DNA of 64,000 nucleotides from Flavobacterium sp. (GTDB taxonomy: Bacteria; Bacteroidota; Bacteroidia; Flavobacteriales; Flavobacteriaceae), in the NCBI RefSeq assembly GCF_046296355.1, contig NZ_JBKBLM010000004.1, positions 7,767 to 71,766 of the forward strand, written 5' to 3'. The notes under the pieces are model-generated. The model did no database searches and had not been told where the DNA came from. It saw only the letters and a list, made by a program, of their open reading frames with translations. The position numbers were made by a program, and so were the translations under genes. Below are positions 6,116 to 63,726 of this stretch, in pieces; positions within the stretch are counted from its first letter, which is position 1, and each line of letters begins with the position of its first letter.

Positions 6116-6258
6116 AACGTTTTTTTTAAAATACCGATTTAGTGTAATTTTTTAACGATGATTGACTCAAAAAAGTTGGATTTACACCTTAATATAATAT
6201 GCTGTTTTTTACCATTATTTTGAATTAAAATTCCCAACACAAAAGACGCCAACTCATT

Positions 6259-6373
6259 AGCCCCGATTGCAGAGGAAATCAACTTTGTCAAAGTTTTGAA
6301 CTTTGACAAAGTTATTGCAACGGAAAGCGGGAACACGGATTCCAAGCGCGCCCAAACCTCTCGCTCCAAAACT
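6259..6373 (+). repeat. Flavo-1-like dispersed element, copy 1, with a nested palindrome in its loop
   Basis: AGCCCCGAT-TGCAGAGGAAATC-[AACTTTGTCAAAGTT TTG AACTTTGACAAAGTT]-ATTGCAACGGAAAGCGGGA; 3' tail resembles that of 40605-40696. Confidence 0.7.
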
Positions 6374-11319: not shown

Positions 11320-11354
11320 TTAGTATTAAGATTTGAGAATTAAGTATTAAGACT
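11320..11354 (+). repeat. Degenerate 7-mer tandem tract in the groES-groEL spacer
   Basis: TAGTATT AAGATTT GAGAATT AAGTATT AAGACT, starting 1 nt after the groES stop. Confidence 0.7.
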
Positions 11355-23053: not shown

Positions 23054-23083
23054 TTGCCTAATCAAAAAAGAAGATTATCTTTG
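23054..23083 (+). promoter_or_regulatory. Bacteroidota sigma70 promoter of rpsO
   Basis: TTG (23054-23056), 19 nt spacer, TATCTTTG (23076-23083). Confidence 0.8.
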
Positions 23084-23088
23084 CACAC

Positions 23089-23109
23089 GAATTGAGAAAA
23101 CCTCAATTC
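23089..23109 (+). promoter_or_regulatory. rpsO leader hairpin (candidate S15 autoregulatory leader)
   Basis: GAATTGAG-AAAAC-CTCAATTC, a perfect 8-bp stem at the predicted transcript 5' end. Confidence 0.55.
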
Positions 23110-23140
23110 ATACATAATAATCATTTAAAATAATATTGGA

Positions 23141-23410
23141 ATGTATTTAACTAAAGAAACAAAAGCTGAAATCTTCGCTAAACACGGAGGAAAAGCTGAA
23201 AACACTGGATCTGCTGAAGGGCAAATCGCTTTGTTTACTTTCAGAATCTCTCACTTAACAGAGCACTTGAAAAAAAATCGTCACGATTACAACACTGAGC
23301 GCTCGTTAGTACTTTTAGTAGGTAAAAGAAGAAGTCTTCTTGACTACTTGAAGAAAAAAGAGATTAACAGATATCGTGAGATTATCAAAGAATTAGGTAT
23401 TAGAAAATAA
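23141..23410 (+). CDS. rpsO: 30S ribosomal protein S15
   Basis: 'NTGSAEGQIALFT', 'HLKKNRHD', 'LVGKRRSLLDYL'. Confidence 0.98.
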   Translation: MYLTKETKAEIFAKHGGKAENTGSAEGQIALFTFRISHLTEHLKKNRHDYNTERSLVLLVGKRRSLLDYLKKKEINRYREIIKELGIRK

Positions 23411-27715: not shown

Positions 27716-27804
27716 GGGCGTTGCCTTCGGCCGGGCTATCCACTACAATCTTTTTGATTTCCCTTTGGGTAATCAAAAAGGATTTCCGTTCCTATCCCTA
27801 ACGC
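27716..27804 (-). repeat. Flavo-1-like dispersed element, copy 3
   Basis: Minus strand GCGTTAGGGAT-AGGAACGGAAATC-[hairpin]-GATTGTAGTGGATAG-CCC-GGCCGAAGGC-AACGC; same core as 6259-6373. Confidence 0.7.
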
Positions 27805-27830
27805 AATCTCTTTAAAACAGAATCTTTTGT

Positions 27831-27870: not shown

Positions 27871-28533
27871 ATGAAAAACACAATTATTGCACCATCAGTG
27901 CTCGCAGCCGATTTTGCCAATCTACAACGCGATATCGAAATGATCAATGCCAGTGAAGCCGATTGGTTCCACATCGACATTATGGATGGTGTTTTTGTTC
28001 CGAATATCTCTTTTGGAATGCCGGTTTTGGAAGCGATTTCAAAACACGCTAAAAAAACAATCGATGTTCACTTAATGATTGTTGACCCTGACCGATACAT
28101 CAAAACTTTTGCCTCATTAAGCGCTAATATTTTAACGGTGCATTACGAAGCTTGTCCTCATTTACACAGAACGTTACAAGCCATCAAAGCCGAAGGCATG
28201 AAAGCTGGTGTAGCGTTGAATCCGCATACGAATGTGGCACTTTTGGAGGACATTATCAAAGACATTGATATGGTTTGCCTTATGAGTGTAAATCCCGGTT
28301 TTGGCGGACAATCTTTTATCGAAAACACTTACTCAAAAATTGAAAAGCTAAAAGAACTAATCATCCGCAAAAATGCATCAACTATCATCGAAATTGACGG
28401 TGGTGTTACCGATAAAAATGCCAAAAGATTAGTGCAAGCCGGAGCCGATGTTTTAGTCGCCGGAAACTTTGTTTTCAAAGCGGAAAATCCAATGCAGACT
28501 ATCGTTGATTTGAAGAAAATCACAACGTTATAA
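27871..28533 (+). CDS. rpe: Ribulose-phosphate 3-epimerase
   Basis: 'IAPSVLAADF', 'HIDIMDGVFVPN', 'DVHLM', 'MSVNPGFGGQ', 'EIDGGV'. Confidence 0.97.
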   Translation: MKNTIIAPSVLAADFANLQRDIEMINASEADWFHIDIMDGVFVPNISFGMPVLEAISKHAKKTIDVHLMIVDPDRYIKTFASLSANILTVHYEACPHLHRTLQAIKAEGMKAGVALNPHTNVALLEDIIKDIDMVCLMSVNPGFGGQSFIENTYSKIEKLKELIIRKNASTIIEIDGGVTDKNAKRLVQAGADVLVAGNFVFKAENPMQTIVDLKKITTL

Positions 28534-39899: not shown

Positions 39900-39944
39900 T
39901 GGCTAAAGATATAAAAAAAGCCCAAGTAATTCTTGAGCTTTGTG

Positions 39945-40018
39945 TGACCCTGAAAGGAGTCGAACCTTCAACCGCTGGAGCCGAAATCCAGTGCTCTATC
40001 CAATTGAGCTACAGAGCC
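39945..40018 (-). tRNA. tRNA-Arg (anticodon UCG)
   Basis: Minus strand GGCTCTG TA GCTC AATTGGATA GAGC A CTGGA TT-TCG-GC TCCAG CGGTT GAAGG TTCGACT CCTTT CAGGGTC A; full cloverleaf, CCA not encoded. Confidence 0.96.
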
Positions 40019-40022
40019 ATTT

Positions 40023-40104
40023 TAAAGTTTGAAGTACGAAGTACAGAGTTTGAAGATAAATCTACTTCGTACTTCGTACTTCCAACTTCGCACTTTGTAC
40101 TTTT
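40023..40104. repeat. Inverted pair of 7-mer tandem arrays with no gene between them
   Basis: 5 units like YGAAGTW (40023-40057), AAATC spacer, 6 units like WACTTCG (40063-40104). Confidence 0.85.
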
Positions 40105-40106
40105 AA

Positions 40107-40556
40107 TTATGTCAATAATTTTTTAACAATAGTCGAAATGGTTTTACCATCGGTTTTACCGGCTAAGGCAGCTGAAGCTTTCCCCATAACTTGTCCCATG
40201 GATGCCATACCTGAGAAACCGCCTTCAGTGATAATTTTTGCAACCGTAGTTTCTACTTCTGCTTCAGATAATTGTGCCGGCAAAAACTTTTCGATTACGG
40301 CTACTTGAGCCAATTCGGGTGCGGCTAAGTCGGCACGGTTTTGCTCGGTATAAATGTTGGCGCTGTCTTTTCTTTGCTTAACCAAACGTTGCAACAATTT
40401 AATTTCATCTTCAGAAGATAAAGTATCGCTGGCACCGGCTTCGGTTTTGGCTAAAATGATGCCTGATTTTATGGCTCTTAAAGCTTCTAAAGCAACGGTG
40501 TCTTTGGCTCTCATGGCGTTTTTCATTTCGTCCATGATTTGTGTTTCTAAACTCAT
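40107..40556 (-). CDS. GatB/YqeY domain protein
   Basis: 'MKNAMRAKD...LRAIKS', 'VKQRKDSA', 'MGQVMG...GKTDGK'. Confidence 0.93.
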   Translation of the reverse strand: MSLETQIMDEMKNAMRAKDTVALEALRAIKSGIILAKTEAGASDTLSSEDEIKLLQRLVKQRKDSANIYTEQNRADLAAPELAQVAVIEKFLPAQLSEAEVETTVAKIITEGGFSGMASMGQVMGKASAALAGKTDGKTISTIVKKLLT

Positions 40557-40558
40557 CT

Positions 40559-40593
40559 TGATATTAGATTTTAAATATTAGATATTAAATATG
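40559..40593. repeat. Solo 7-mer tandem arm directly upstream of the yqeY start
   Basis: TGATATT AGATTTT AAATATT AGATATT AAATATG; same unit as the four-helix-bundle flanks. Confidence 0.8.
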
Positions 40594-40604
40594 ATTGGCT
40601 TTTA

Positions 40605-40696
40605 AGCCCCGATGGGAGCAAGTATCCTCGAAGAGATACTGCGGACAGCGGGAAAATGGATTACTGAAACTGCCCGAACCTTTCGCTTCCCAAACT
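40605..40696 (+). repeat. Flavo-1-like dispersed element, copy 2
   Basis: AGCCCCGAT-GGGAGCAAGTATC-CTCGAAGA-GATACTGCGGACAG-CGGGA plus a tail 'GCCCGAACCTTTCGCTTCCCAAACT' like copy 1. Confidence 0.7.
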
Positions 40697-40731
40697 AAAT
40701 TTGGGACTAGCCTAAAAAGCACTGCGAAGTT

Positions 40732-40773
40732 AAAAAAAATAACCCGAAAATCTCAGTGAAATTTTCGGGTTAT
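40732..40773 (-). terminator. Terminator ending the dcw cluster after ftsZ
   Basis: ATAACCCGAAAAT-9nt-ATTTTCGGGTTAT with an A8 run. Confidence 0.85.
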
Positions 40774-40796: not shown

Positions 40797-42767
40797 TTAG
40801 TCTACATTATCATGCAAGAAGGAATTATTGGTTCTGATTTGTAAATCATCGTTACTATCAGTTCCCAATGACATTCTTGAGTTTGAGCTATTGTCGGCGT
40901 TGTTTGACAGTTCAACTCCTAATCTTTTGTAAGCCGGTTCTTTTTCCATTTCCTCAATTCTTGACGGATTGTTGTGGAATTTGTAATTGAACTCTTTTAA
41001 TTTTCTTCTGCGCTCGTCGGCTCTGTGTTTCAACGTTTCTTCGATAGTCATTTCTACCGGAGAAGCGTCGTCGAAGTAATTAACTGAAGTGGTTTGAGGT
41101 TTCTCGGTTTCCACAACTTGTTTCATGGTGATGTTTAACTCTTCAGCGATTGGCTCTTCTACGATTTTTGCGACCGGTTTAGAATTCAATAAGTCGTTTT
41201 CTAACTCCATGTACTCTTCCAAAGAATATTTGATTACGCCACCTTCGTTCAATTCCGTTACCGGAACGAATTGTACAGGCTCGTTTACCACTATTTCATT
41301 GGCCTCAGACAAATCGAAAACGATTCTGCTTTCTTCCACTTCTTGAACCACTTCTATCGTTTCCACTTTTTCAAATACAGGCGTTGCAGCCGGCATATCA
41401 AAAGTAAAAGTGATTTGCTCTTCTTCGATGATGTCTTGTGGTTCAACCACTTTCATTTCACGAACTTCAGGTGTGGTTACTTTGTAATCGATGTCCATGA
41501 TAGGCGATACGATTTCGAAAGTCACGTCTAAATTGCGGATGAATTGGTTCATCGCGATTAATTCGTTGTCATTGATAGCCGTTGGAGCTGCTACTATGGT
41601 TTCAATTTCTTCTTCGATTAATTCGAATACGATTTTTTCTTCTTTAACTTCTGCTTTAGGTGTATCAACAATAGTTTGGAAAACTTCTACCGGTTTTTGG
41701 GTTAAGTCGCGCACCAATTTTTGATCGTCTTCTAAAGCGTGAACTATTTTCTTGGCTTCAATGTTTAAAAGTCCGTTTTGTTGTTCTTGATTAAAACCTG
41801 TAGCAATTATAGTTACTGCGATAGAATCTCCTAACGTTTCGTCTTCACCAACTCCCATGATGATGTTGGCATTGTGACCGGCTTCCGATTGGATATGGTC
41901 GTTGATTTCTCCAATTTCGTCAATGGTGATTTCGTTATTACCAGAAACGATAAGCAACAATACGTTTTTGGCACCAGAGATTTTATTATCATTTAACAAT
42001 GGAGAATCTAAGGCAGAAATGATAGCATCTTTTGCTCTATTTTCGCCATTAGCCGTAGCAGAACCCATGATGGCTCTTCCGCTATTTTCCAATACTGTTT
42101 TCGCGTCTTTTAAGTCAATGTTTTGCGTGTAGTGGTGTGTAATTACTTCCGCGATACCACGAGAAGCAGTCGCCAACACTTCATCAGCTTTTGAGAAACC
42201 GGCTTTGAAACCTAAGTTTCCGTACACTTCTCTCAACTTATTGTTATTGATAACAATCAAAGAATCTACTTGTTTTCTTAATTTTTCAACACCCAACAAG
42301 GCTTGTTCCGAACGAACTTTTCCTTCAAACTGGAAAGGAATCGTGACGATACCAACGGTAAGAATGTCTCTTTCTTTGGCCAATTGCGCAATTACGGGAG
42401 CCGCACCAGTTCCTGTTCCACCGCCCATACCGGCAGTGATGAACACCATTTTGGTATTGCTGTCCAACATTTTTTCGATGTCGCCCACACTTTCCAAAGC
42501 GGATTGTTGTCCAACATCCGGGTTAGCGCCTGCGCCAAGACCTTCGGTTAAGTTCACACCCAACTGAATTTTATTGGGTACCGGACTGTTTTGAAGTGCC
42601 TGTGAGTCGGTATTACAAACGATGAAATCTACACCTTTGATTCCCTGTTTGAACATGTGATTGATAGCGTTACTTCCGCCGCCACCAACACCGATTACTT
42701 TAATCACATTTGATTGATTCTTTGGTAAATCAAATGAGATGCTTCCAAATTCTGAGTTGCTTATCAT
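40797..42767 (-). CDS. ftsZ: Cell division protein FtsZ with a long acidic C-terminal linker
   Basis: 'IKVIGVGGGGSNA', 'GMGGGTGTG'; about 300 aa Glu-rich extension. Confidence 0.97.
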   Translation of the reverse strand: MISNSEFGSISFDLPKNQSNVIKVIGVGGGGSNAINHMFKQGIKGVDFIVCNTDSQALQNSPVPNKIQLGVNLTEGLGAGANPDVGQQSALESVGDIEKMLDSNTKMVFITAGMGGGTGTGAAPVIAQLAKERDILTVGIVTIPFQFEGKVRSEQALLGVEKLRKQVDSLIVINNNKLREVYGNLGFKAGFSKADEVLATASRGIAEVITHHYTQNIDLKDAKTVLENSGRAIMGSATANGENRAKDAIISALDSPLLNDNKISGAKNVLLLIVSGNNEITIDEIGEINDHIQSEAGHNANIIMGVGEDETLGDSIAVTIIATGFNQEQQNGLLNIEAKKIVHALEDDQKLVRDLTQKPVEVFQTIVDTPKAEVKEEKIVFELIEEEIETIVAAPTAINDNELIAMNQFIRNLDVTFEIVSPIMDIDYKVTTPEVREMKVVEPQDIIEEEQITFTFDMPAATPVFEKVETIEVVQEVEESRIVFDLSEANEIVVNEPVQFVPVTELNEGGVIKYSLEEYMELENDLLNSKPVAKIVEEPIAEELNITMKQVVETEKPQTTSVNYFDDASPVEMTIEETLKHRADERRRKLKEFNYKFHNNPSRIEEMEKEPAYKRLGVELSNNADNSSNSRMSLGTDSNDDLQIRTNNSFLHDNVD

Positions 42768-46247: not shown

Positions 46248-46286
46248 TTAGTTACTGAGTAGCTGAGTCACTGTGTGGCTGAGTTA
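46248..46286 (-). repeat. 8-mer tandem tract filling the whole murG-murC spacer
   Basis: Minus strand: TAG|TAACTCAG CCACACAG TGACTCAG CTACTCAG TAACTAA|ATG. Confidence 0.8.
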
Positions 46287-47384: not shown

Positions 47385-48695
47385 TTATTTTCCTTTCAAA
47401 ATTGGTTCCAATGGATTGGCTTTATCTTCGATAGAATAGCTTTCCAATTCGGCTTGTAATGCTGCTTTTTCTGCTTCTTCCTCTTCTTGTAATTGTTTGT
47501 CAATCATTCGTTGCAAAGCGTCTTCGCGTTTTTGCTTGTCGGCTAATTCTTCAGCGATTTCTTCTTCTTTTTTCGTCACACTTAAAATAATGCCGAGTGC
47601 GATACAAGTCATCCAAATGGAGCTTCCACCAGAACTAATCAAGGGTAACGTTTGTCCGGTTACGGGTAATAATTCTACCGCTACTGCCATATTGGTCATC
47701 GCTTGAAAAATAATTGGGAAGCCTAAACCGATGACGACGAGTTTGCCAAAAAGCGAATTGGATTTATGAGCTGCGACAACGAATCGGAACAACAAAAGTA
47801 AGTACATAAACAAAACTAAAATCCCTCCGAACAATCCGTATTCTTCAACAATAATCGCATAAATGAAATCGGAAGATGATTGTGGCAAGAAATTTTTCTG
47901 CACACTTTTTCCCGGACCTAAACCGTAAACACCGCCTGATGCGATGGCGATTTTGGCTTTTTCGATTTGGTAATCATCTTCATCGGGCTTATCGCTGGTG
48001 AAATTATCGATACGGTTTATCCAAGTGTCTACACGATTAGGGAAAGCTTCCGGAAATGCTTTGGCTACTAAGATGAAAAATGTCAGTCCTATAATTCCGG
48101 CACCGATTATGATTCCAATATATTTCAATGGATATTTTCCAATAAAAGCCAACATCAAAACCATTGAAAATATCAACGCTGCAGTGGATAAATTGGCCGG
48201 TAGAATTAGGATTACCGTGATAAAAACCGGTGTCCATAAATCCCATAAAGAGGATTGAAAAGTGATGGGTGTTTCTCTCGTTTTGGATAAATATCTCGCT
48301 ACAAAAACGTATAAAACAATAGAAGCCAAAGCTGATGTTTGGAATGTAATTCCGATGAACGGAATCTGAATCCAACGGCTGGCATTGGCACCATCGATAA
48401 TCGTTCCTTTGAGTAATGTATAAATCAACAATACCCAAACGACAGGCAATAACAAACGTGAAATCGTTCGGAAATAGTGATACGGTACTTTGTGGATTTT
48501 GTAAAGAATAAAAAATCCAACTAATACTTGCGCGCCGTGTTTTAATAAATACGTCAACGCATTTCCTGAACCGTGACGCATGTAAGCCAAATTACTACTC
48601 GCACTAAACACCGGCATAAACGAAAACAACGCCAACAAGGCCACGAATGCCCAGATGACTTTATCTCCTTTTAAGCTGTGAATTAGTTCTTTCAT
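47385..48695 (-). CDS. ftsW: SEDS protein FtsW
   Basis: 'GASRWI', 'SDFIYAII', 'LPLISSGGSS'; dcw position. Confidence 0.93.
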   Translation of the reverse strand: MKELIHSLKGDKVIWAFVALLALFSFMPVFSASSNLAYMRHGSGNALTYLLKHGAQVLVGFFILYKIHKVPYHYFRTISRLLLPVVWVLLIYTLLKGTIIDGANASRWIQIPFIGITFQTSALASIVLYVFVARYLSKTRETPITFQSSLWDLWTPVFITVILILPANLSTAALIFSMVLMLAFIGKYPLKYIGIIIGAGIIGLTFFILVAKAFPEAFPNRVDTWINRIDNFTSDKPDEDDYQIEKAKIAIASGGVYGLGPGKSVQKNFLPQSSSDFIYAIIVEEYGLFGGILVLFMYLLLLFRFVVAAHKSNSLFGKLVVIGLGFPIIFQAMTNMAVAVELLPVTGQTLPLISSGGSSIWMTCIALGIILSVTKKEEEIAEELADKQKREDALQRMIDKQLQEEEEAEKAALQAELESYSIEDKANPLEPILKGK

Positions 48696-48697
48696 TT

Positions 48698-49131
48698 TAA
48701 TATTAAATTTTAGATTTTAGATTTTAGATATTAAATATTTATATGTTTTGTTGTTCAATCTGTTGTTTACTGTTTTTAAGGTTGAAACGAAAATTGCCAC
48801 TAGTTCACTTGATTCTTTTAGAGGAAATGCTAATTCAGATTTACTTATCCAGTTCATTTCGGCTATAATTTCAAGCCAAAATTGAGCTTCATCAACTTCT
48901 TCTAAAACAATATTCAACTTTGCTACAAACTCTTTATCACTTCTTGCTCTACAAACCGCTCTATAATTTGCTCCAACAGAAGTTGAGCTCTTGGCCAATT
49001 GATTAATGACAACTCTTGATGAAATTGAATTCGGCATTTTCTCGACTAAATTTAAAATCAGTAAAGAGAATTGCTTAGTTCTATTTTTTAACTCATCGTT
49101 TGTCATATTTGATATTTAATATCTAATATTT
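48698..49131 (-). mobile_element. Putative four-helix-bundle cassette: gene plus inverted 7-mer repeat arms, between murD and ftsW
   Basis: Left arm 48698-48739 (ARATWTT x6), right arm 49104-49131 (reverse-complement unit x4); 13-bp perfect inverted core. Confidence 0.6.
48717..49106 (-). CDS. Four-helix-bundle protein (23S rRNA IVP / TIGR02436 family, Avd-like fold)
   Basis: 'QLAKSSTSVGANY', 'EFVAKLNIVLEEVDEAQFWLE'; 129 aa. Confidence 0.9.
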   Translation of the reverse strand: MTNDELKNRTKQFSLLILNLVEKMPNSISSRVVINQLAKSSTSVGANYRAVCRARSDKEFVAKLNIVLEEVDEAQFWLEIIAEMNWISKSELAFPLKESSELVAIFVSTLKTVNNRLNNKTYKYLISKI

Positions 49132-49135
49132 TATA

Positions 49136-50470
49136 TTATAAATTCTGTACGGCTACTTTAAACTGGTTTCCTCTGTCTTCGTAGTTTTGGAACAAATCAA
49201 AACTCGCGCAAGCCGGAGATAATAAAACCGCGTCACCTTTTTCGGTTAAATGTTTGGCTGTGTTAACTGCGTCACGCATGTTGTCTACTTCTACCATCAT
49301 ATCGACTACATCACTGAACGCGTCGATGATTTTTTTGTTGTCTAAACCAAGGCAAATAATGGCTTTTACTTTTTCGCGAACTAACGGCATCAACTCGCTG
49401 TAATCGTTTCCTTTATCAACTCCGCCGACAATCCAAACGGTTGGAACCGTCATGCTGTCTAAAGCAAAGAAAGTCGCGTTGACATTGGTCGCTTTGCTAT
49501 CGTTGATGTACTGCACATTTTGAATTTTGAGTACTTTTTCCAAACGGTGTTCTACGCCTTGGAAATTGGACAAACTCTCGCGAATGGTTTGCTTTCTGAT
49601 TTTCATCAATTGGGCGACAGAAGTGGCAGCCATAGCGTTTTTCATGTTGTGTTTTCCTTCCAAAGAAATGTCCGCTGTTTTCATTTCAAATTCCTCGTTG
49701 TTGATGATGATGTCCATAGTATCGTTTTTTATAAAGGCTCCGTTTTCAAAAGTTTGTAATAGTGAAAATGGAATTAATTGTGCTTTTGTTTTGTTGTTTT
49801 GAAACCATTCTGAAATCGCTTCTTCATCGGCGTCATAGATGAAGAAATCGTCTTCAGTTTGGTTCATTGTTATTCTAAATTTTGATGCGATATAATTTTC
49901 ATATTTGTATTCATATCGATCCAAATGATCGGGACTGATGTTTGTTAGAATTGCGATGTCCGGTTTATAATTTATTATGCCGTCCAATTGAAAACTGCTT
50001 AATTCTAACACATAGCAATCGTAGTTTTCTTCCGCCACTTGCCAAGCAAAACTCTTTCCGATATTACCGCCTAATCCAACATTCAATCCGCCTTCTTTGA
50101 GCAAATGGTAAGTCAACATGGTTGTCGTTGTTTTACCGTTGCTTCCTGTGATTCCTATGGTTTTGGCGTCGGTAAACGGATAAGCAAATTCTATTTCGGA
50201 AATAACTGAAATTCCTTTTTCCAATAGTTTTTTAACCAATGGCGCTTTCTCAGGAATTCCGGGACTTTTCATGACTACATCGGCATTGAGGATTAATTCC
50301 TCTGTATGCTTTTCGTCTTCCCATTGAATTTCATATTTGTTAAGAACGTCTCTGTATTTTTCTTTTATTTTTCCCATATCGGATACGAAAACCTCGTATC
50401 CTTCTTTCTTTCCTAAAATGGCGGTTCCAACCCCACTTTCTCCTCCGCCAAGTACAACCAATCGCTTCAT
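49136..50470 (-). CDS. murD: UDP-N-acetylmuramoyl-L-alanine--D-glutamate ligase
   Basis: Start set at '[13 protein letters not shown]'; 'GSNGKTTT', 'ELSSFQL', 'NDSKATN', 'SPACASFD'. Confidence 0.97.
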   Translation of the reverse strand: MKRLVVLGGGESGVGTAILGKKEGYEVFVSDMGKIKEKYRDVLNKYEIQWEDEKHTEELILNADVVMKSPGIPEKAPLVKKLLEKGISVISEIEFAYPFTDAKTIGITGSNGKTTTTMLTYHLLKEGGLNVGLGGNIGKSFAWQVAEENYDCYVLELSSFQLDGIINYKPDIAILTNISPDHLDRYEYKYENYIASKFRITMNQTEDDFFIYDADEEAISEWFQNNKTKAQLIPFSLLQTFENGAFIKNDTMDIIINNEEFEMKTADISLEGKHNMKNAMAATSVAQLMKIRKQTIRESLSNFQGVEHRLEKVLKIQNVQYINDSKATNVNATFFALDSMTVPTVWIVGGVDKGNDYSELMPLVREKVKAIICLGLDNKKIIDAFSDVVDMMVEVDNMRDAVNTAKHLTEKGDAVLLSPACASFDLFQNYEDRGNQFKVAVQNL

Positions 50471-51690
50471 TATCTCAGTTTTAATGTCACAATGGAAACG
50501 ATGGCTAACAATATCGCAACGATCCAAAAACGGGTTACGATTTTACTTTCGTGATAGCCTTTCTTTTGGTAATGATGGTGCAATGGCGACATGAGGAAAA
50601 TTCGCTTTCCTTCGCCAAAGCGTTTTTTGGTGTATTTGAAGTAGGAAACCTGCATAATCACGGATAAGTTTTCGGCAAAGAAAATGGCGCACAATACCGG
50701 TAACAACATTTCTTTGCGAACCGAAATTGCCAAAACCGCTATAATTCCGCCAATAGTTAAACTTCCTGTATCACCCATAAATACCGATGCCGGGAAAGAA
50801 TTGTACCAAAGAAATCCGATTAAAGCTCCGACGAATGCCGAAATGAAAACCGTCATTTCACCAGAATTCGGGATGTACATAATATTTAAATAGCCTGAAA
50901 GAATCACGTTACCCGAAACGAAAGTGAAAATTCCCAATGCGAGTACGGAAATAGCAGAAGTTCCTGCGGCTAATCCATCGATGCCATCGGTTAAATTGGC
51001 TCCATTGGAAACTGCAGTGATGATAAAAATTACGATTGGAATAAAGATTAACCAAGCCCAGTTTTCATAACCTTCTCCGGTCCACTCAATGAATTTGGCA
51101 TAATCCAACTCATTATTTTTAGTGAATGGAATGGTTGTCGTTGTTGATTTGTGCTCAATAGGTGTTTGAGAAATTACGTTTTCTGTTTGGTTAACAGTAG
51201 TTACGGCTTTTTCTCTAACGGTTACGCCCGGATGAAAATACAAAACCGAACCTACGATTAATCCTAAACCTACTTGCCCGATTACTTTGAAAATCCCTTT
51301 TAACCCTTGTTTGTCTTTTTTGAAGATTTTGATGTAATCATCAATGAATCCGATAGTTCCCATCCATAGTGTGGTTACTATTAAAAGGATGATGTAGATA
51401 TTATTCAACTTCGTCAAAAGAATCACCGGAATCAACGTCGCAATAATGATGATTAATCCACCCATTGTTGGTGTTCCCGCTTTTTCATTTTGTCCTTGCA
51501 AGCCAAGTTCTCTAACCGTTTCTCCTACTTGTTGATTCCTCAAAAAGTTGATGATTTTTTTACCGTAAATGGTCGAAATCATCAAGGAAAGGATCAATGC
51601 TAAAGCCGAACGAAAAGTAATGTATTGGAAAACTCCGGTTCCCGGAACATCCATGGTTTTGTCGAGGTATTCAAATAAATAATATAACAT
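50470..51690 (-). CDS. mraY: Phospho-N-acetylmuramoyl-pentapeptide transferase
   Basis: 'GTPTMGG', 'GFIDDY', 'NLTDGIDGL', 'FMGDTGS', 'PLHHH'. Confidence 0.97.
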
Positions 51691-61583: not shown

Positions 61584-61610
61584 AAAAACCCGCTAAACGC
61601 GGGTTTTTTT
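61584..61610. terminator. Bidirectional terminator between the regulator and dnaG
   Basis: AAAAACCCGC-TAAAC-GCGGGTTTTT. Confidence 0.85.
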
Positions 61611-63588
61611 ATAGGTATGTGGAACGTATTCTTCCAATTTTGTTGGTTAAACTGACTTTTAACTTATTGTAATCGTTGATAGTCGCCATAATTTCTACTG
61701 AATCATTTTCTTCCTCAGCTTTGAAATTATTCATCAAATCCAGAATCAATTTGTTGATCAAATATTCGCGAAGTGAAATAATTGTTTCGGAAACATATTG
61801 ACTTACATTTTGGATTTTGGTTTTCACGTAAATATGTTTGGTTTCCCAATTGTGCAGCAACTCTTTTTCTTCAGACATTAAAATATCAGTAACCATTTGG
61901 GAATGTTCTGGCGACAGTTGCATTAAATAATGCTCAATATTGAACTCCTCGTTTTGGTTAAAATAATTGATTAAATCAGTATAAATTTCCTGAAATATCG
62001 GATTGGCCAATTCTACTTCGTCTTCTTGCAGACTGAGATAGATTCTCTGAAACACTTTAAAGGTATTGGTTTCCTTTTCTTCTGTCATTTCACCTTCTTC
62101 ATTGGCTTTTAGAATATAATCGTCGAAATCGGCTTCTTGTGAGCCGTATAGCAATAACATTTCTAAAATCTTTCGCTCTAAGTCATAAACGATATTGACT
62201 TTCTCTTGAGCAACTTGCAGTTCATTCTTAACCACTTCAAAAGCCTTTTGCTCGGTTTTGAGTTTTTTGCCGGCTTCCGAAATGTCTTTTTGCACTAATT
62301 GCGCTAGGGTATTTAGCAAAACCTGTTCAGAAATGTCCATAATTCGGGCCGTTTCCTGAATGTAGATTTCTCTTTTGATTCGGTCCGGAATTTTGGAAAT
62401 ACTCACCACCATATCGCGAATTAAATCGGCTTTCTTGATAGGATCATTATTGGCTTCATTCATCAAAAGTGACGCTTTGAACTGAATAAAATCCTTGGCA
62501 TTGTTTTCTAAATAGGAAACTAAATCTTCATACGAGTTCTTTCGCGCAAAACTATCCGGATCATCGCCATCAGGAAAAGTACAGACTTTTACGTTCATGC
62601 CTTCTTCCAAAATCAAATCGATTCCGCGAACAGAAGCACGCAATCCGGCGGCATCGCCATCAAAAAGTACGGTAATATTTTTGGTCAAACGATTGATTAA
62701 TCGAATTTGGTCAGGAGTCAAAGCCGTTCCCGAAGATGCAACCACATTTTCAATGCCGGCTTGATGCAACTGAATCACATCGGTATAACCTTCGACTAAA
62801 TAACAGTTGTTTTGCTTGGCAATGGCTTGTTTGGCATGGAAAATTCCATACAAAACTTTACTTTTATGGTAAATATCGCTTTCGGGCGAATTGAGGTATT
62901 TGGCCGCTTTTTTATCATTGGTCAAAATCCTACCACCAAAACCTAAGTTTCTTCCGGACAAACTTTGAATCGGAAACATGACTCTGCCTTTGAATCGGTC
63001 AAAATGTTTTCCGTCTTCTCTGGTGATGGTCAGTCCGACTTTTTCTAAGAATTCTAATTGGTAACCTTTGGCCAAAGCTTCTTTGGTAAAGGCATCCCAA
63101 GATTCGGGCGAATAACCTAAACCAAATTTGGCAATGGTTTCATTGGTAAAACCTCTTTCTTTGAAATAAGACAACCCAATGGCTTTACCTTCTTCGGTAT
63201 TTAAAAGCGTATCGTGGAAATAACTTTTGGCAAATTCCGATACCAAATACATGCTTTCCTTCTCATTGGCTTCAATTTTATCTTCTTGAGAAACTTCGGT
63301 TTCTTCAATCTCGATATTGTATTTATTGGCCAAAAAACGAATCGCTTCCGGATATGTAAAGTGCTCGTGTTCCATCAAGAAAGTCACGACACTTCCGCCT
63401 TTTCCTGAACTAAAATCTTTCCAAATTTGCTTTACGGGTGACACCATAAACGAAGGTGAGCGCTCATCCGAAAACGGACTCAAGCCTTTGTAATTGCTTC
63501 CGGCGCGTTTAAGTTGGACGAAATCACCGATGACTTCTTCCACGCGTGCGGTTTCAAATACTTTATCTATGGTTTCGCGGGTAATCAA
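61609..63588 (-). CDS. dnaG: DNA primase
   Basis: Zn-finger-like 'GLSPFSDERSPSF', 'FGGR', 'KYLNSPE', TOPRIM 'VEGYTD', 'FDGDAAG', 'DPD'; TTG start. Confidence 0.97.
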   Translation of the reverse strand: MITRETIDKVFETARVEEVIGDFVQLKRAGSNYKGLSPFSDERSPSFMVSPVKQIWKDFSSGKGGSVVTFLMEHEHFTYPEAIRFLANKYNIEIEETEVSQEDKIEANEKESMYLVSEFAKSYFHDTLLNTEEGKAIGLSYFKERGFTNETIAKFGLGYSPESWDAFTKEALAKGYQLEFLEKVGLTITREDGKHFDRFKGRVMFPIQSLSGRNLGFGGRILTNDKKAAKYLNSPESDIYHKSKVLYGIFHAKQAIAKQNNCYLVEGYTDVIQLHQAGIENVVASSGTALTPDQIRLINRLTKNITVLFDGDAAGLRASVRGIDLILEEGMNVKVCTFPDGDDPDSFARKNSYEDLVSYLENNAKDFIQFKASLLMNEANNDPIKKADLIRDMVVSISKIPDRIKREIYIQETARIMDISEQVLLNTLAQLVQKDISEAGKKLKTEQKAFEVVKNELQVAQEKVNIVYDLERKILEMLLLYGSQEADFDDYILKANEEGEMTEEKETNTFKVFQRIYLSLQEDEVELANPIFQEIYTDLINYFNQNEEFNIEHYLMQLSPEHSQMVTDILMSEEKELLHNWETKHIYVKTKIQNVSQYVSETIISLREYLINKLILDLMNNFKAEEENDSVEIMATINDYNKLKVSLTNKIGRIRSTYL

Positions 63589-63590
63589 AA

Positions 63591-63630
63591 TAGATTGTTA
63601 GATTGTTAGATTATTAGATTGTTAGAAATC
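63591..63630 (-). repeat. 8-mer tandem tract ending 2 nt before the dnaG start codon
   Basis: Plus strand TAGATTGT TAGATTGT TAGATTAT TAGATTGT TAGAAATC. Confidence 0.85.
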
Positions 63631-63666
63631 TTGAAAAGAAATCAAAGAGGGTAAATTTACACATTC

Positions 63667-63692
63667 AGAATTTAAAATTTAAAATTTAAAAT
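63667..63692. repeat. Short 7-mer tract next to the terminator upstream of dnaG
   Basis: AGAATTT AAAATTT AAAATTT AAAAT. Confidence 0.55.
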
Positions 63693-63726
63693 AAAAAAAA
63701 GATGCTCCATTGCTGAAACATCTTTT
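63693..63726 (-). terminator. Intrinsic terminator with a GCAA tetraloop
   Basis: Minus strand AAAAGATGTTTCA-GCAA-TGGAGCATCTTTT plus T run. Confidence 0.85.

Follow-up and report, generated by a model that had tools for sequence, protein, structure and literature searches.

A tandem heptanucleotide array directly upstream of yqeY in Flavobacterium as a candidate leader element, and its relation to the arms of a four-helix-bundle gene cassette

How the ribosomes of Bacteroidia, which do not use Shine-Dalgarno (SD) sequences (PMC6847099), find their start codons is an open question on which tandem repeats lying against a start codon bear. Such a repeat is present in the window analysed here, by which we mean the whole stretch of 64,000 nucleotides from contig NZ_JBKBLM010000004.1 of a Flavobacterium genome close to F. 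buctense. A tandem heptanucleotide array on its (-) strand at 40557-40593, detected both by Tandem Repeats Finder (TRF) and by a lag-7 detector, leads directly into the ATG (40556-40554) of yqeY, whose open reading frame (ORF; 40107-40556, (-)) encodes a GatB/YqeY-domain protein of 149 amino acids (Pfam PF09424, E 4e-41). A first-pass annotation of the sequence had described this array as a “solo arm”, related to the repeat arms around a four-helix-bundle (4HB) gene 8.5 kb away and doubling as an SD-less translation initiation region. The locus raises the question of whether the array is a piece of that cassette or a leader element in its own right. Our answer is that it is an ordinary instance of an abundant, little-studied class of repeats, and on balance probably forms the 3′ end of the 5′ untranslated leader of yqeY, where we propose that it serves SD-independent ribosome loading.

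The yqeY array and its match to the cassette arms

TRF gives the array a period of 7 and 4.7 copies (40560-40592), and in mRNA sense it reads ATATTTA, ATATCTA, ATATTTA, AAATCTA and ATATCAAG, followed directly by the yqeY ATG. The leader ends ...AATCTAATATCAAG-ATG, with a single G, at -1, and with no SD sequence between repeat and start codon. On the mRNA strand the units of this array and of the array preceding ftsW are of the form WATYTAA and essentially G-free; both arrays have the same register to their ATG, with A at -3, -6 and -13, and both are predicted to be unpaired, RNA folding leaving most of the yqeY array single-stranded. In F. johnsoniae, low structure and A at -3, -6, -12 and -13 promote initiation, and bS1 is suspected of contacting positions -12 to -15 (PMC6847099). 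On our reading the array mRNA, a nearly G-free and weakly structured A/U/C tract, would be the SD-independent ribosome loading region of yqeY, perhaps acting as a row of 7-nt sites for a single-stranded RNA binding protein such as bS1 or a cold-shock-domain protein. The properties of the mRNA strand are thus those to be expected of the SD-less initiation region suggested in the first-pass annotation, while its function is something that we infer from them. The array also gives each of the three frames a TAA no more than 31 nt from the ATG, and G-type arrays and AT-rich DNA generally do likewise.

The cassette consists of the 4HB gene (129 amino acids, 48717-49106, (-)) between a 5′ array at 49107-49135 (-) (TRF period 7, 4.7 copies), which is of TTAGATA type in mRNA sense and fills the whole spacer from the murD stop to the 4HB ATG, and a 3′ array at 48696-48743 (-) (TRF period 7, 5.9 copies) before ftsW. 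The identities noted at first pass were all recovered: the 20-mer AAATATTAGATATTAAATAT is exact at 40573-40592 (+) and, as its reverse complement, at 49112-49131 (-), the 13-mer AGATATTAAATAT is shared by 40580 (+) and 48726 (+) and also by 49124 (-), and the yqeY-side and ftsW-side arrays both stop 2-3 nt from an ATG. Within the window the 20-mer is above background, as 5 matches with up to 3 mismatches were found, all in the three arms, where shuffles lead one to expect 0.05. The reservation that low complexity weakens the identity also holds, all three arms being tandem 7-mers of common units (ATATTAG, ATTTTAG, ATATTAA and ATTTTAA on the (+) strand). Since the 20-mer is only about three such units long, the match is far less improbable than it would be in unique DNA, and by a rough hand estimate two arrays of four unit types would share a 20-mer by chance about 1 time in 10. 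The best match of the yqeY array is direct and not inverted, with 29 of 32 positions identical between 40561-40592 and 48707-48738 in the ftsW-side arm. The units behind the 20-nt identity are ATATTAG/ATATTAA, and the identity appears to come from these common repeat units and not from a specific copying event.

Elsewhere, 45 Bacteroidota loci, from Flavobacterium, Lutibacter, Gelidibacter, Aquaticitalea and further genera, have the 20-mer at a total of 47 sites, of which 41 avoid long ORFs, whereas 19 of the 41 matches beyond the Bacteroidota fall, by chance, inside coding sequence. The positional bias toward start codons that had been anticipated for the 20-mer exists but is weak, with 10 of the 47 Bacteroidota sites leading into a start on the G-poor strand and 6 on the other. 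No partner arm in cis was found, as the stretch from the ftsZ terminator to the yqeY array has no array of G type; the sole perfect complement lies 8.5 kb away in another transcription unit.

Heptamer arrays in Flavobacteriia and in yqeY leaders

In the 64-kb window the lag-7 detector picks up five arrays, while 20 shuffles give none, and a further two, of 8-mers, come from TRF. Flavobacteriia loci totalling 743 kb, which were fetched via the 20-mer, yqeY, ftsW and the 4HB gene and are hence a biased set, contain 151 arrays with many unrelated units. Although this set is enriched for 4HB genes, 97 of the 151 arrays lie more than 100 nt from any 4HB ORF; about 40% of these 97 have a local complementary partner (17% in the control) and the remaining ~60% are solo. 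Arrays are thus a general intergenic feature of Flavobacteriia, mostly without a 4HB gene. They are also oriented: if only an ATG that opens an ORF of at least 70 amino acids is counted, 38 of the 133 oriented arrays have one within -7 to +25 nt on the G-poor strand and just 8 of 133 on the G-rich strand, most of the eight being 4HB genes. The class is large and fast-evolving, consisting of 7-nt and sometimes 8-nt tandem arrays in intergenic DNA; in single arrays the G-poor strand is the mRNA strand just 5′ of a start codon, inverted pairs form A/U-rich hairpins between cistrons, and some of these hairpins hold a 4HB gene in their loop.

Further members in the window illustrate this range. Between the yqeY stop and the tRNA-Arg gene an inverted pair of GAAGTAC and GTACTTC units forms a hairpin (40021-40095, (-); minimum free energy (MFE) -31.2 kcal/mol, z -5.7), and the same spot in orthologs carries hairpins or arrays of quite different units (GGAATTA, GAATTTA, AATTCAT, TTTTAGA). 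The 8-mer ACTCAGNN, repeated 3.8 times, occupies the whole spacer between murG and murC as far as the murC ATG (46248-46286), four copies of ATTAAGA follow groES in the groES-groEL spacer (11320-11352), and two arrays, TAGATTGT in 4.5 copies and AAATTTA in 5.6, lie upstream of the ORF at 61609-63588 (63583-63700).

Arrays of different sequence occupy the same position in a minority of orthologs. Periodic runs of 7 or 8 nt were found in the 60 nt before the yqeY ATG in 17 of 80 Flavobacterium species (shuffles give a mean of 2.2 and a maximum of 5), and upstream of ftsW in 34 of 77 (shuffles 2.6). The stronger yqeY runs end 2-5 nt from the ATG and have more C than G; a run ending 0-8 nt from the ATG was seen in 6 of 8 cases for yqeY and 15 of 25 for ftsW, with C exceeding G in nearly all. 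A TCTAA core recurs in the yqeY arrays, which otherwise differ greatly between species. Compared with F. buctense (98% identity in YqeY), the leader and coding sequence of the window's yqeY are almost identical, but the segment from CCAATCAT to the ATG is wholly replaced, being of a heptamer ATATCTA type in the window and of an octamer AATCTAAY type in F. buctense, while the window's type recurs in the more distant F. mekongense and F. macrobrachii. The history of the arrays therefore appears incongruent with that of their flanks. In metagenomes a tight-flank pattern gave no match, and a looser pattern returned only 5 relevant contigs, which suffice to reveal further array variants between the same yqeY flanks but not to reveal any copy-number polymorphism. 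Array DNA would thus seem to evolve by 7-nt slippage, as the one-unit difference from F. buctense in the ftsW arm suggests, and by exchange of the entire array between fixed boundaries, as indicated by the swap of the CCAATCAT-ATG segment between near-identical flanks; either could retune expression.

The window's yqeY array appears orthologous to other yqeY arrays, including that of F. mekongense, and so would not be a recent copy of the ftsW arm. No 4HB gene was found within 1.5 kb of yqeY in any of the 80 orthologous loci, and at murD-ftsW most Flavobacterium species have repeat hairpins or solo arrays but no cassette; together with the 97 arrays that have no 4HB gene nearby, this speaks against derivation of the yqeY array from the cassette. 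Of the first-pass description as a related arm there remains that it is of the same repeat family as both cassette arms, with the orientation and ATG register of the ftsW-side arm, but its being a cassette arm or a derivative of one finds no support, and the yqeY and cassette arms probably share units without sharing an origin.

Several points weigh against a role of the array in ribosome loading. About 60 of the 80 yqeY orthologs have no array, so expression of yqeY does not depend on one. The frequency of A by position across loci reveals no fixed register of the repeats relative to the ATG, only a general A at -3 and G depletion, and G is scarce in the 20 nt that precede yqeY and ftsW in all orthologs, so that general G depletion before the ATG may explain the orientation of arrays without any positive contribution from them. 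Taken together, the orthologs that lack an array, the want of a universal register and the general G depletion mean that orientation may reflect tolerance and not use. The transcription start site of yqeY, the assignment of the array to the 5′ untranslated region and its part in initiation are all read from sequence, and because the locus sets are biased the array counts are not a genome-wide census.

The murD-ftsW spacer and the yqeY transcript

The 4HB protein belongs to the 23S rRNA intervening sequence (IVS) protein or S23p family (PF05635, E 2e-13; TIGR02436, E 2e-21), its closest solved structure being PDB 2RLD (E 2e-16). Rfam finds no rRNA in the window, and the neighbours of the cassette are genes of the dcw (division and cell wall) cluster, with murD at 49136-50527 (-) and ftsW at 47385-48695 (-); a PADLOC scan of the 4HB protein for a link to defence systems returned one weak match alone (E 0.008, 13.8 bits). 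In both the MFE and the centroid fold, a long-range stem of 15 bp encloses the ORF and leaves the ATG-proximal heptamers single-stranded, so that the loop-proximal units of the 3′ array are predicted to pair with the 5′ array while its ATG-proximal units form an unpaired ftsW leader. A 4HB ORF lies directly upstream of ftsW in 13 of 80 Flavobacterium species (loci L193-L272 give the murD-ftsW spacers of 77 species; the L258 site carries one), and in all cassettes inspected inverted arrays flank the 4HB gene, their units varying by clade yet being complementary within each element: TTTTAGA/TCTAAAA in Flavobacterium, GTTAGAG/CTCTAAC in Moheibacter, GGATGAA/TTCATCC in Indibacter and TGGTAAT/ATTACCA in a Gemmatimonadales genome. 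The F. johnsoniae clade (L182, L184, 632-1091) has a second dcw 4HB cassette ~1.8 kb upstream with arms of AATTAAA/TTTAATT type. Between distinct unit families the duplex of cognate arms is far stronger than that of non-cognate arms, as in this second cassette, where it reaches -39.9 kcal/mol against a median of -10.1 kcal/mol. In Cytophagia, Gemmatimonadales and Patescibacteria (L187, L188, L190, L017), too, 4HB genes stand between inverted tandem heptamers, whose units (GGATGAA, CAATTAC) are specific to the lineage, so that arms of heptamers seem to accompany the 4HB protein family across phyla. In the literature, most subscription journals lying outside the search, we found no description of heptamer arms around 4HB genes other than those in rRNA, or of an IVS-like 4HB cassette in an mRNA operon, which is how we would read the arrangement here.

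The murD/cassette junction is near-identical to that of F. buctense JCM 30750, but the window's ftsW arm is one 7-nt unit longer than the F. buctense arm (L168), and a 2-nt indel (48717-48745 compared with L168) removes the ancestral 4HB stop, so that the window's ORF runs on into the arm (129 compared with 121 amino acids). In other species the cassette ORF is broken and its arms are kept (48 amino acids in L171, 77 in L183, 64 in L186 and 37 in L189). The relatives nearest to the window in FtsW (97% and 96% identical) lack a cassette, and their hairpins are built of unrelated units. Among cassette-free murD-ftsW spacers of 35-130 nt, 32 of 55 form hairpins at z ≤ -3 from clade-specific tandem units, the last 15 nt before the ftsW AUG being almost always unpaired, often with extra units of the 3′ arm; other spacers hold a solo G-poor array (L239, L245, L224), a Flavo-1 RNA element or plain AT-rich sequence. 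Only a weaker version of the first-pass suggestion, that arms of this kind would render insertions harmless, is plausible, namely that the cassette occupies the loop of a pre-existing type of hairpin and the 3′ extension stays the leader of the downstream gene.

Upstream of yqeY lies ftsZ (40797-42767, (-)), then ftsA, ftsQ, murC and murG, and ftsZ has a canonical intrinsic terminator at 40739-40773 (-). A motif scan with the Bacteroidia -7 consensus TAHHTTTG, for which the spacing to the transcription start is 4-5 nt (PMC6847099), gave one candidate box for yqeY, TAACTTCG at 40725-40732 (-), with 7 of 8 positions matching; no -7 box was found on the yqeY strand inside the array. The candidate overlaps the T-run of the ftsZ terminator and is conserved there in orthologs, including those with leaders of ~35 nt. 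It predicts a yqeY transcription start near 40720 and a leader of ~160 nt, which would consist of the reverse complement of a Flavo-1-like element followed by the heptamer array as its last ~36 nt. As there is no terminator between yqeY and tRNA-Arg (39944-40018, (-)), the unit probably comprises promoter, leader, yqeY, heptamer hairpin, tRNA-Arg and terminator.

The Flavo-1-like element lies at 40601-40700 on the (+) strand, opposite to yqeY, with a match to Rfam RF01705 at 40601-40659 and conservation on to ~40700. Its score of 33.6 bits (E 1e-05) is below the gathering score of 42 because its variable hairpin is shortened, and as orthologous copies at the same yqeY position score 44-78.5 bits we read it as a degenerate member of the family. 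In every unambiguous case Flavo-1 stands 30-65 nt upstream of a start codon on the strand opposite to the downstream gene, namely in 13 yqeY orthologs, 5 murD-ftsW spacers and the window copy before the ORF at 27871-28533 (loci include L074, L150, L129, L162 and L117 for yqeY, and L202, L215, L209, L242 and L232 for murD-ftsW), and conservation extends ~40 nt 3′ of the Rfam model. The leaders of these mRNAs carry the reverse complement of Flavo-1, so either its functional strand differs from that of Rfam or it is an antisense or DNA-level element. The other copies in the window, at 27725-27807 (-) and 6255-6338 (+), have no adjacent array. A perfect -7 box, TAAATTTG, was also seen at 40696-40703 (+) within a small hairpin, cccaaacTAAATTTGgg, pointing to the 3′ end of ftsZ, and is probably a chance occurrence.

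The remaining observations concern the setting. The only sequencing run to match the window is one of hot-spring metagenome DNA, and none of RNA does. RNA-seq runs of F. covae are stored as contigs of 14-19 kb that extend across the entire region and so reveal no transcript ends. An S15-Flavobacteria ribosomal protein leader (RF03161) at 23076-23143 (+), scoring 78.6 bits, is an ordinary annotation unrelated to the yqeY array.

Alternative explanations and known systems

That the array might be mere low-complexity AT-rich sequence with no family relationship is suggested by its repetitive A/T-rich composition and by the occurrence of the 20-mer in coding regions of unrelated phyla, but the shuffles refute this, and periodicity, strand bias and position recur in orthologs, so we give the idea practically no credence. 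A possible though doubtful account of its origin is that it is a 3′ arm left over from an earlier inverted-repeat hairpin, or from an IVS-like cassette that was excised or has decayed, and that it persists only as tolerated G-poor A/T-rich sequence. One yqeY ortholog (L161) does have both arms and no cassette, in three others (L086, L088, L120) a short vestige of TTAGAG type remains on the 5′ side of the array, the murD-ftsW spacer is found across species in every state from cassette through empty hairpin and solo array to plain sequence, and arms do persist around the broken ORFs described above; against this, a 5′ arm has left no trace in the window or in its nearest array relatives (L109, L074), the yqeY loci of the 80 species are without a nearby 4HB gene, and with some 60% of cassette-free arrays lacking a local partner the solo form is a normal state. 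As this account concerns origin, it is compatible with a present-day function in the leader.

It is much less probable that the array works on the other strand, its (+) strand end supplying a -7-like box, TAAATATG (40586-40593), for an antisense Flavo-1 small RNA starting ~5 nt downstream. The box matches TAHHTTTG at 7 of 8 positions, lies 8 nt before the Flavo-1 match at 40601 with correct spacing, and recurs with that spacing in F. mekongense. A sigma-70-like match was also found at 40558-40586 and was disregarded, as the sigma-70 consensus does not apply to Bacteroidia. The -7 motif is however poor in information in AT-rich DNA, a perfect match with no obvious role occurs 100 nt away, yqeY orthologs without an array (L087, L093) still have Flavo-1 upstream, the other two Flavo-1 copies in the window lack an array, and Flavo-1 sits antisense in murD-ftsW spacers as short as ~110 nt, which argues for a cis-acting mRNA element rather than an antisense gene. 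Pairing in trans, whereby the yqeY leader would bind the cassette 5′ arm of the dcw transcript and couple yqeY translation or stability to dcw (or, in general form, G-type arrays would be antisense partners of C-type leaders), we hold to be very improbable. The predicted duplex (20 bp, -19.5 kcal/mol) does exceed the cassette’s own stem (15 bp, -14.1 kcal/mol), but it contains A-U pairs only, common units explain it without selection, and the complementarity is not conserved, since in both F. buctense, the closest relative with a cassette, and F. cheonhonense the yqeY array has units of another type and cannot pair with the cassette arm. The proposal of an SD-independent loading region is the one that we prefer to these.

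A wider view, which we regard as unlikely, is that the start-proximal stretch in Flavobacteriia is a maintained “slot” for hypervariable tandem-repeat modules whose arms co-vary to keep a hairpin, and that array replacement within its boundaries is active or templated, or serves regulation by register-shifting or trans pairing, and is not plain slippage. The modules could host genes for IVS proteins (Avd-like 4HB) or Flavo-1, ribosomes would load at the unpaired 3′ extension of the repeats, solo arrays such as that of yqeY would represent one state of a cycle, and array-to-array conversion could possibly involve the 4HB proteins. The observed pattern at the level of the system, with co-varying arms and hypervariable arrays, is a more interesting lead than the solo arm itself: the occupants of a single operon spacer are interchangeable between species, being in some Flavo-1, in some a cassette with an IVS-protein gene and in others a repeat hairpin without one, and an unpaired leader is almost always left. 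It offers a handle on the purpose of rRNA IVSs and of S23p/Avd-like proteins, and on the strand and action of Flavo-1. If arrays do act as loading pads or protein-binding platforms, they would be natural and easily engineered modules for the control of translation.

Among known systems, the repetitive extragenic palindromes (REPs) of enterobacteria are conserved-sequence palindromes mobilised by REP-associated tyrosine transposases (RAYTs). The hairpin forms described here resemble REPs and bacterial interspersed mosaic elements in being short structured inserts between co-transcribed genes, and by analogy a role in protection of mRNA 3′ ends or in segmental stability is plausible for them (for example at 40021-40095), but they are made of tandem repeats that are not conserved, no transposase is evident, and the solo array, being unpaired, falls outside the comparison. 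A second comparison is with the phase-variable heptanucleotide simple-sequence repeats in 5′ untranslated regions and promoters of Haemophilus influenzae (PMC8262952 on HMW1A; PMC12721329), which are reported to be likewise intergenic and to alter expression when slippage changes their copy number, one of the two studies describing a 5′ untranslated RNA element targeted by RNase III; they serve contingency (surface-protein) genes, whereas the genes here are housekeeping genes.

For the cassette, the nearest parallel is the 23S rRNA IVS of Coxiella burnetii, in which 3-4 tandem GACAGAT heptamers, their number varying with the strain, stand before an S23p ORF and the first repeat is where RNase III cleaves the stem (PMC4990558). 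Common to both are a PF05635 ORF within an inverted-repeat stem, tandem heptamers 5′ of its ATG with a copy number that varies between strains, and decay of the ORF while the RNA element persists (Warrier 2016, PMC4990558); the cassette differs in lying in an mRNA operon spacer (murD-ftsW) and not in rRNA. The solo yqeY array is not itself an IVS, as it has no partner arm and no ORF and does not lie in rRNA.

Heptamer repeats of the type described by MacGregor are related to long simple-sequence repeats and to the short tandemly repeated repetitive (STRR) heptamers of cyanobacteria. Their TAACTGA units end a few nt upstream of start codons, mostly without a ribosome binding site, also in some Bacteroidetes, and have been reported in the Flavobacteriia Gramella and Aequorivita beside “other heptamer direct repeats”; a function has been hypothesised only, as possible binding sites for S1, Csp or Csr (PMC4679880). 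The arrays described here differ in belonging to other unit families, that of yqeY having ATATCTA, ATATTTA and AAATCTA (WATYTAA) and not TAACTGA, and in that many unit families occur per genome, inverted hairpins are frequent and units turn over completely between close relatives. They agree with the repeats of MacGregor 2015 (PMC4679880) in a 7-nt unit with 2-6 or more tandem copies and interspersed variants, an intergenic site, a “forward” orientation, an end a few nt before the start codon usually without a ribosome binding site, a place before housekeeping genes and differences between strains in steps of 7 nt, and in all but the sequence of its unit the yqeY array would appear to be a start-codon-proximal heptamer repeat of that type.

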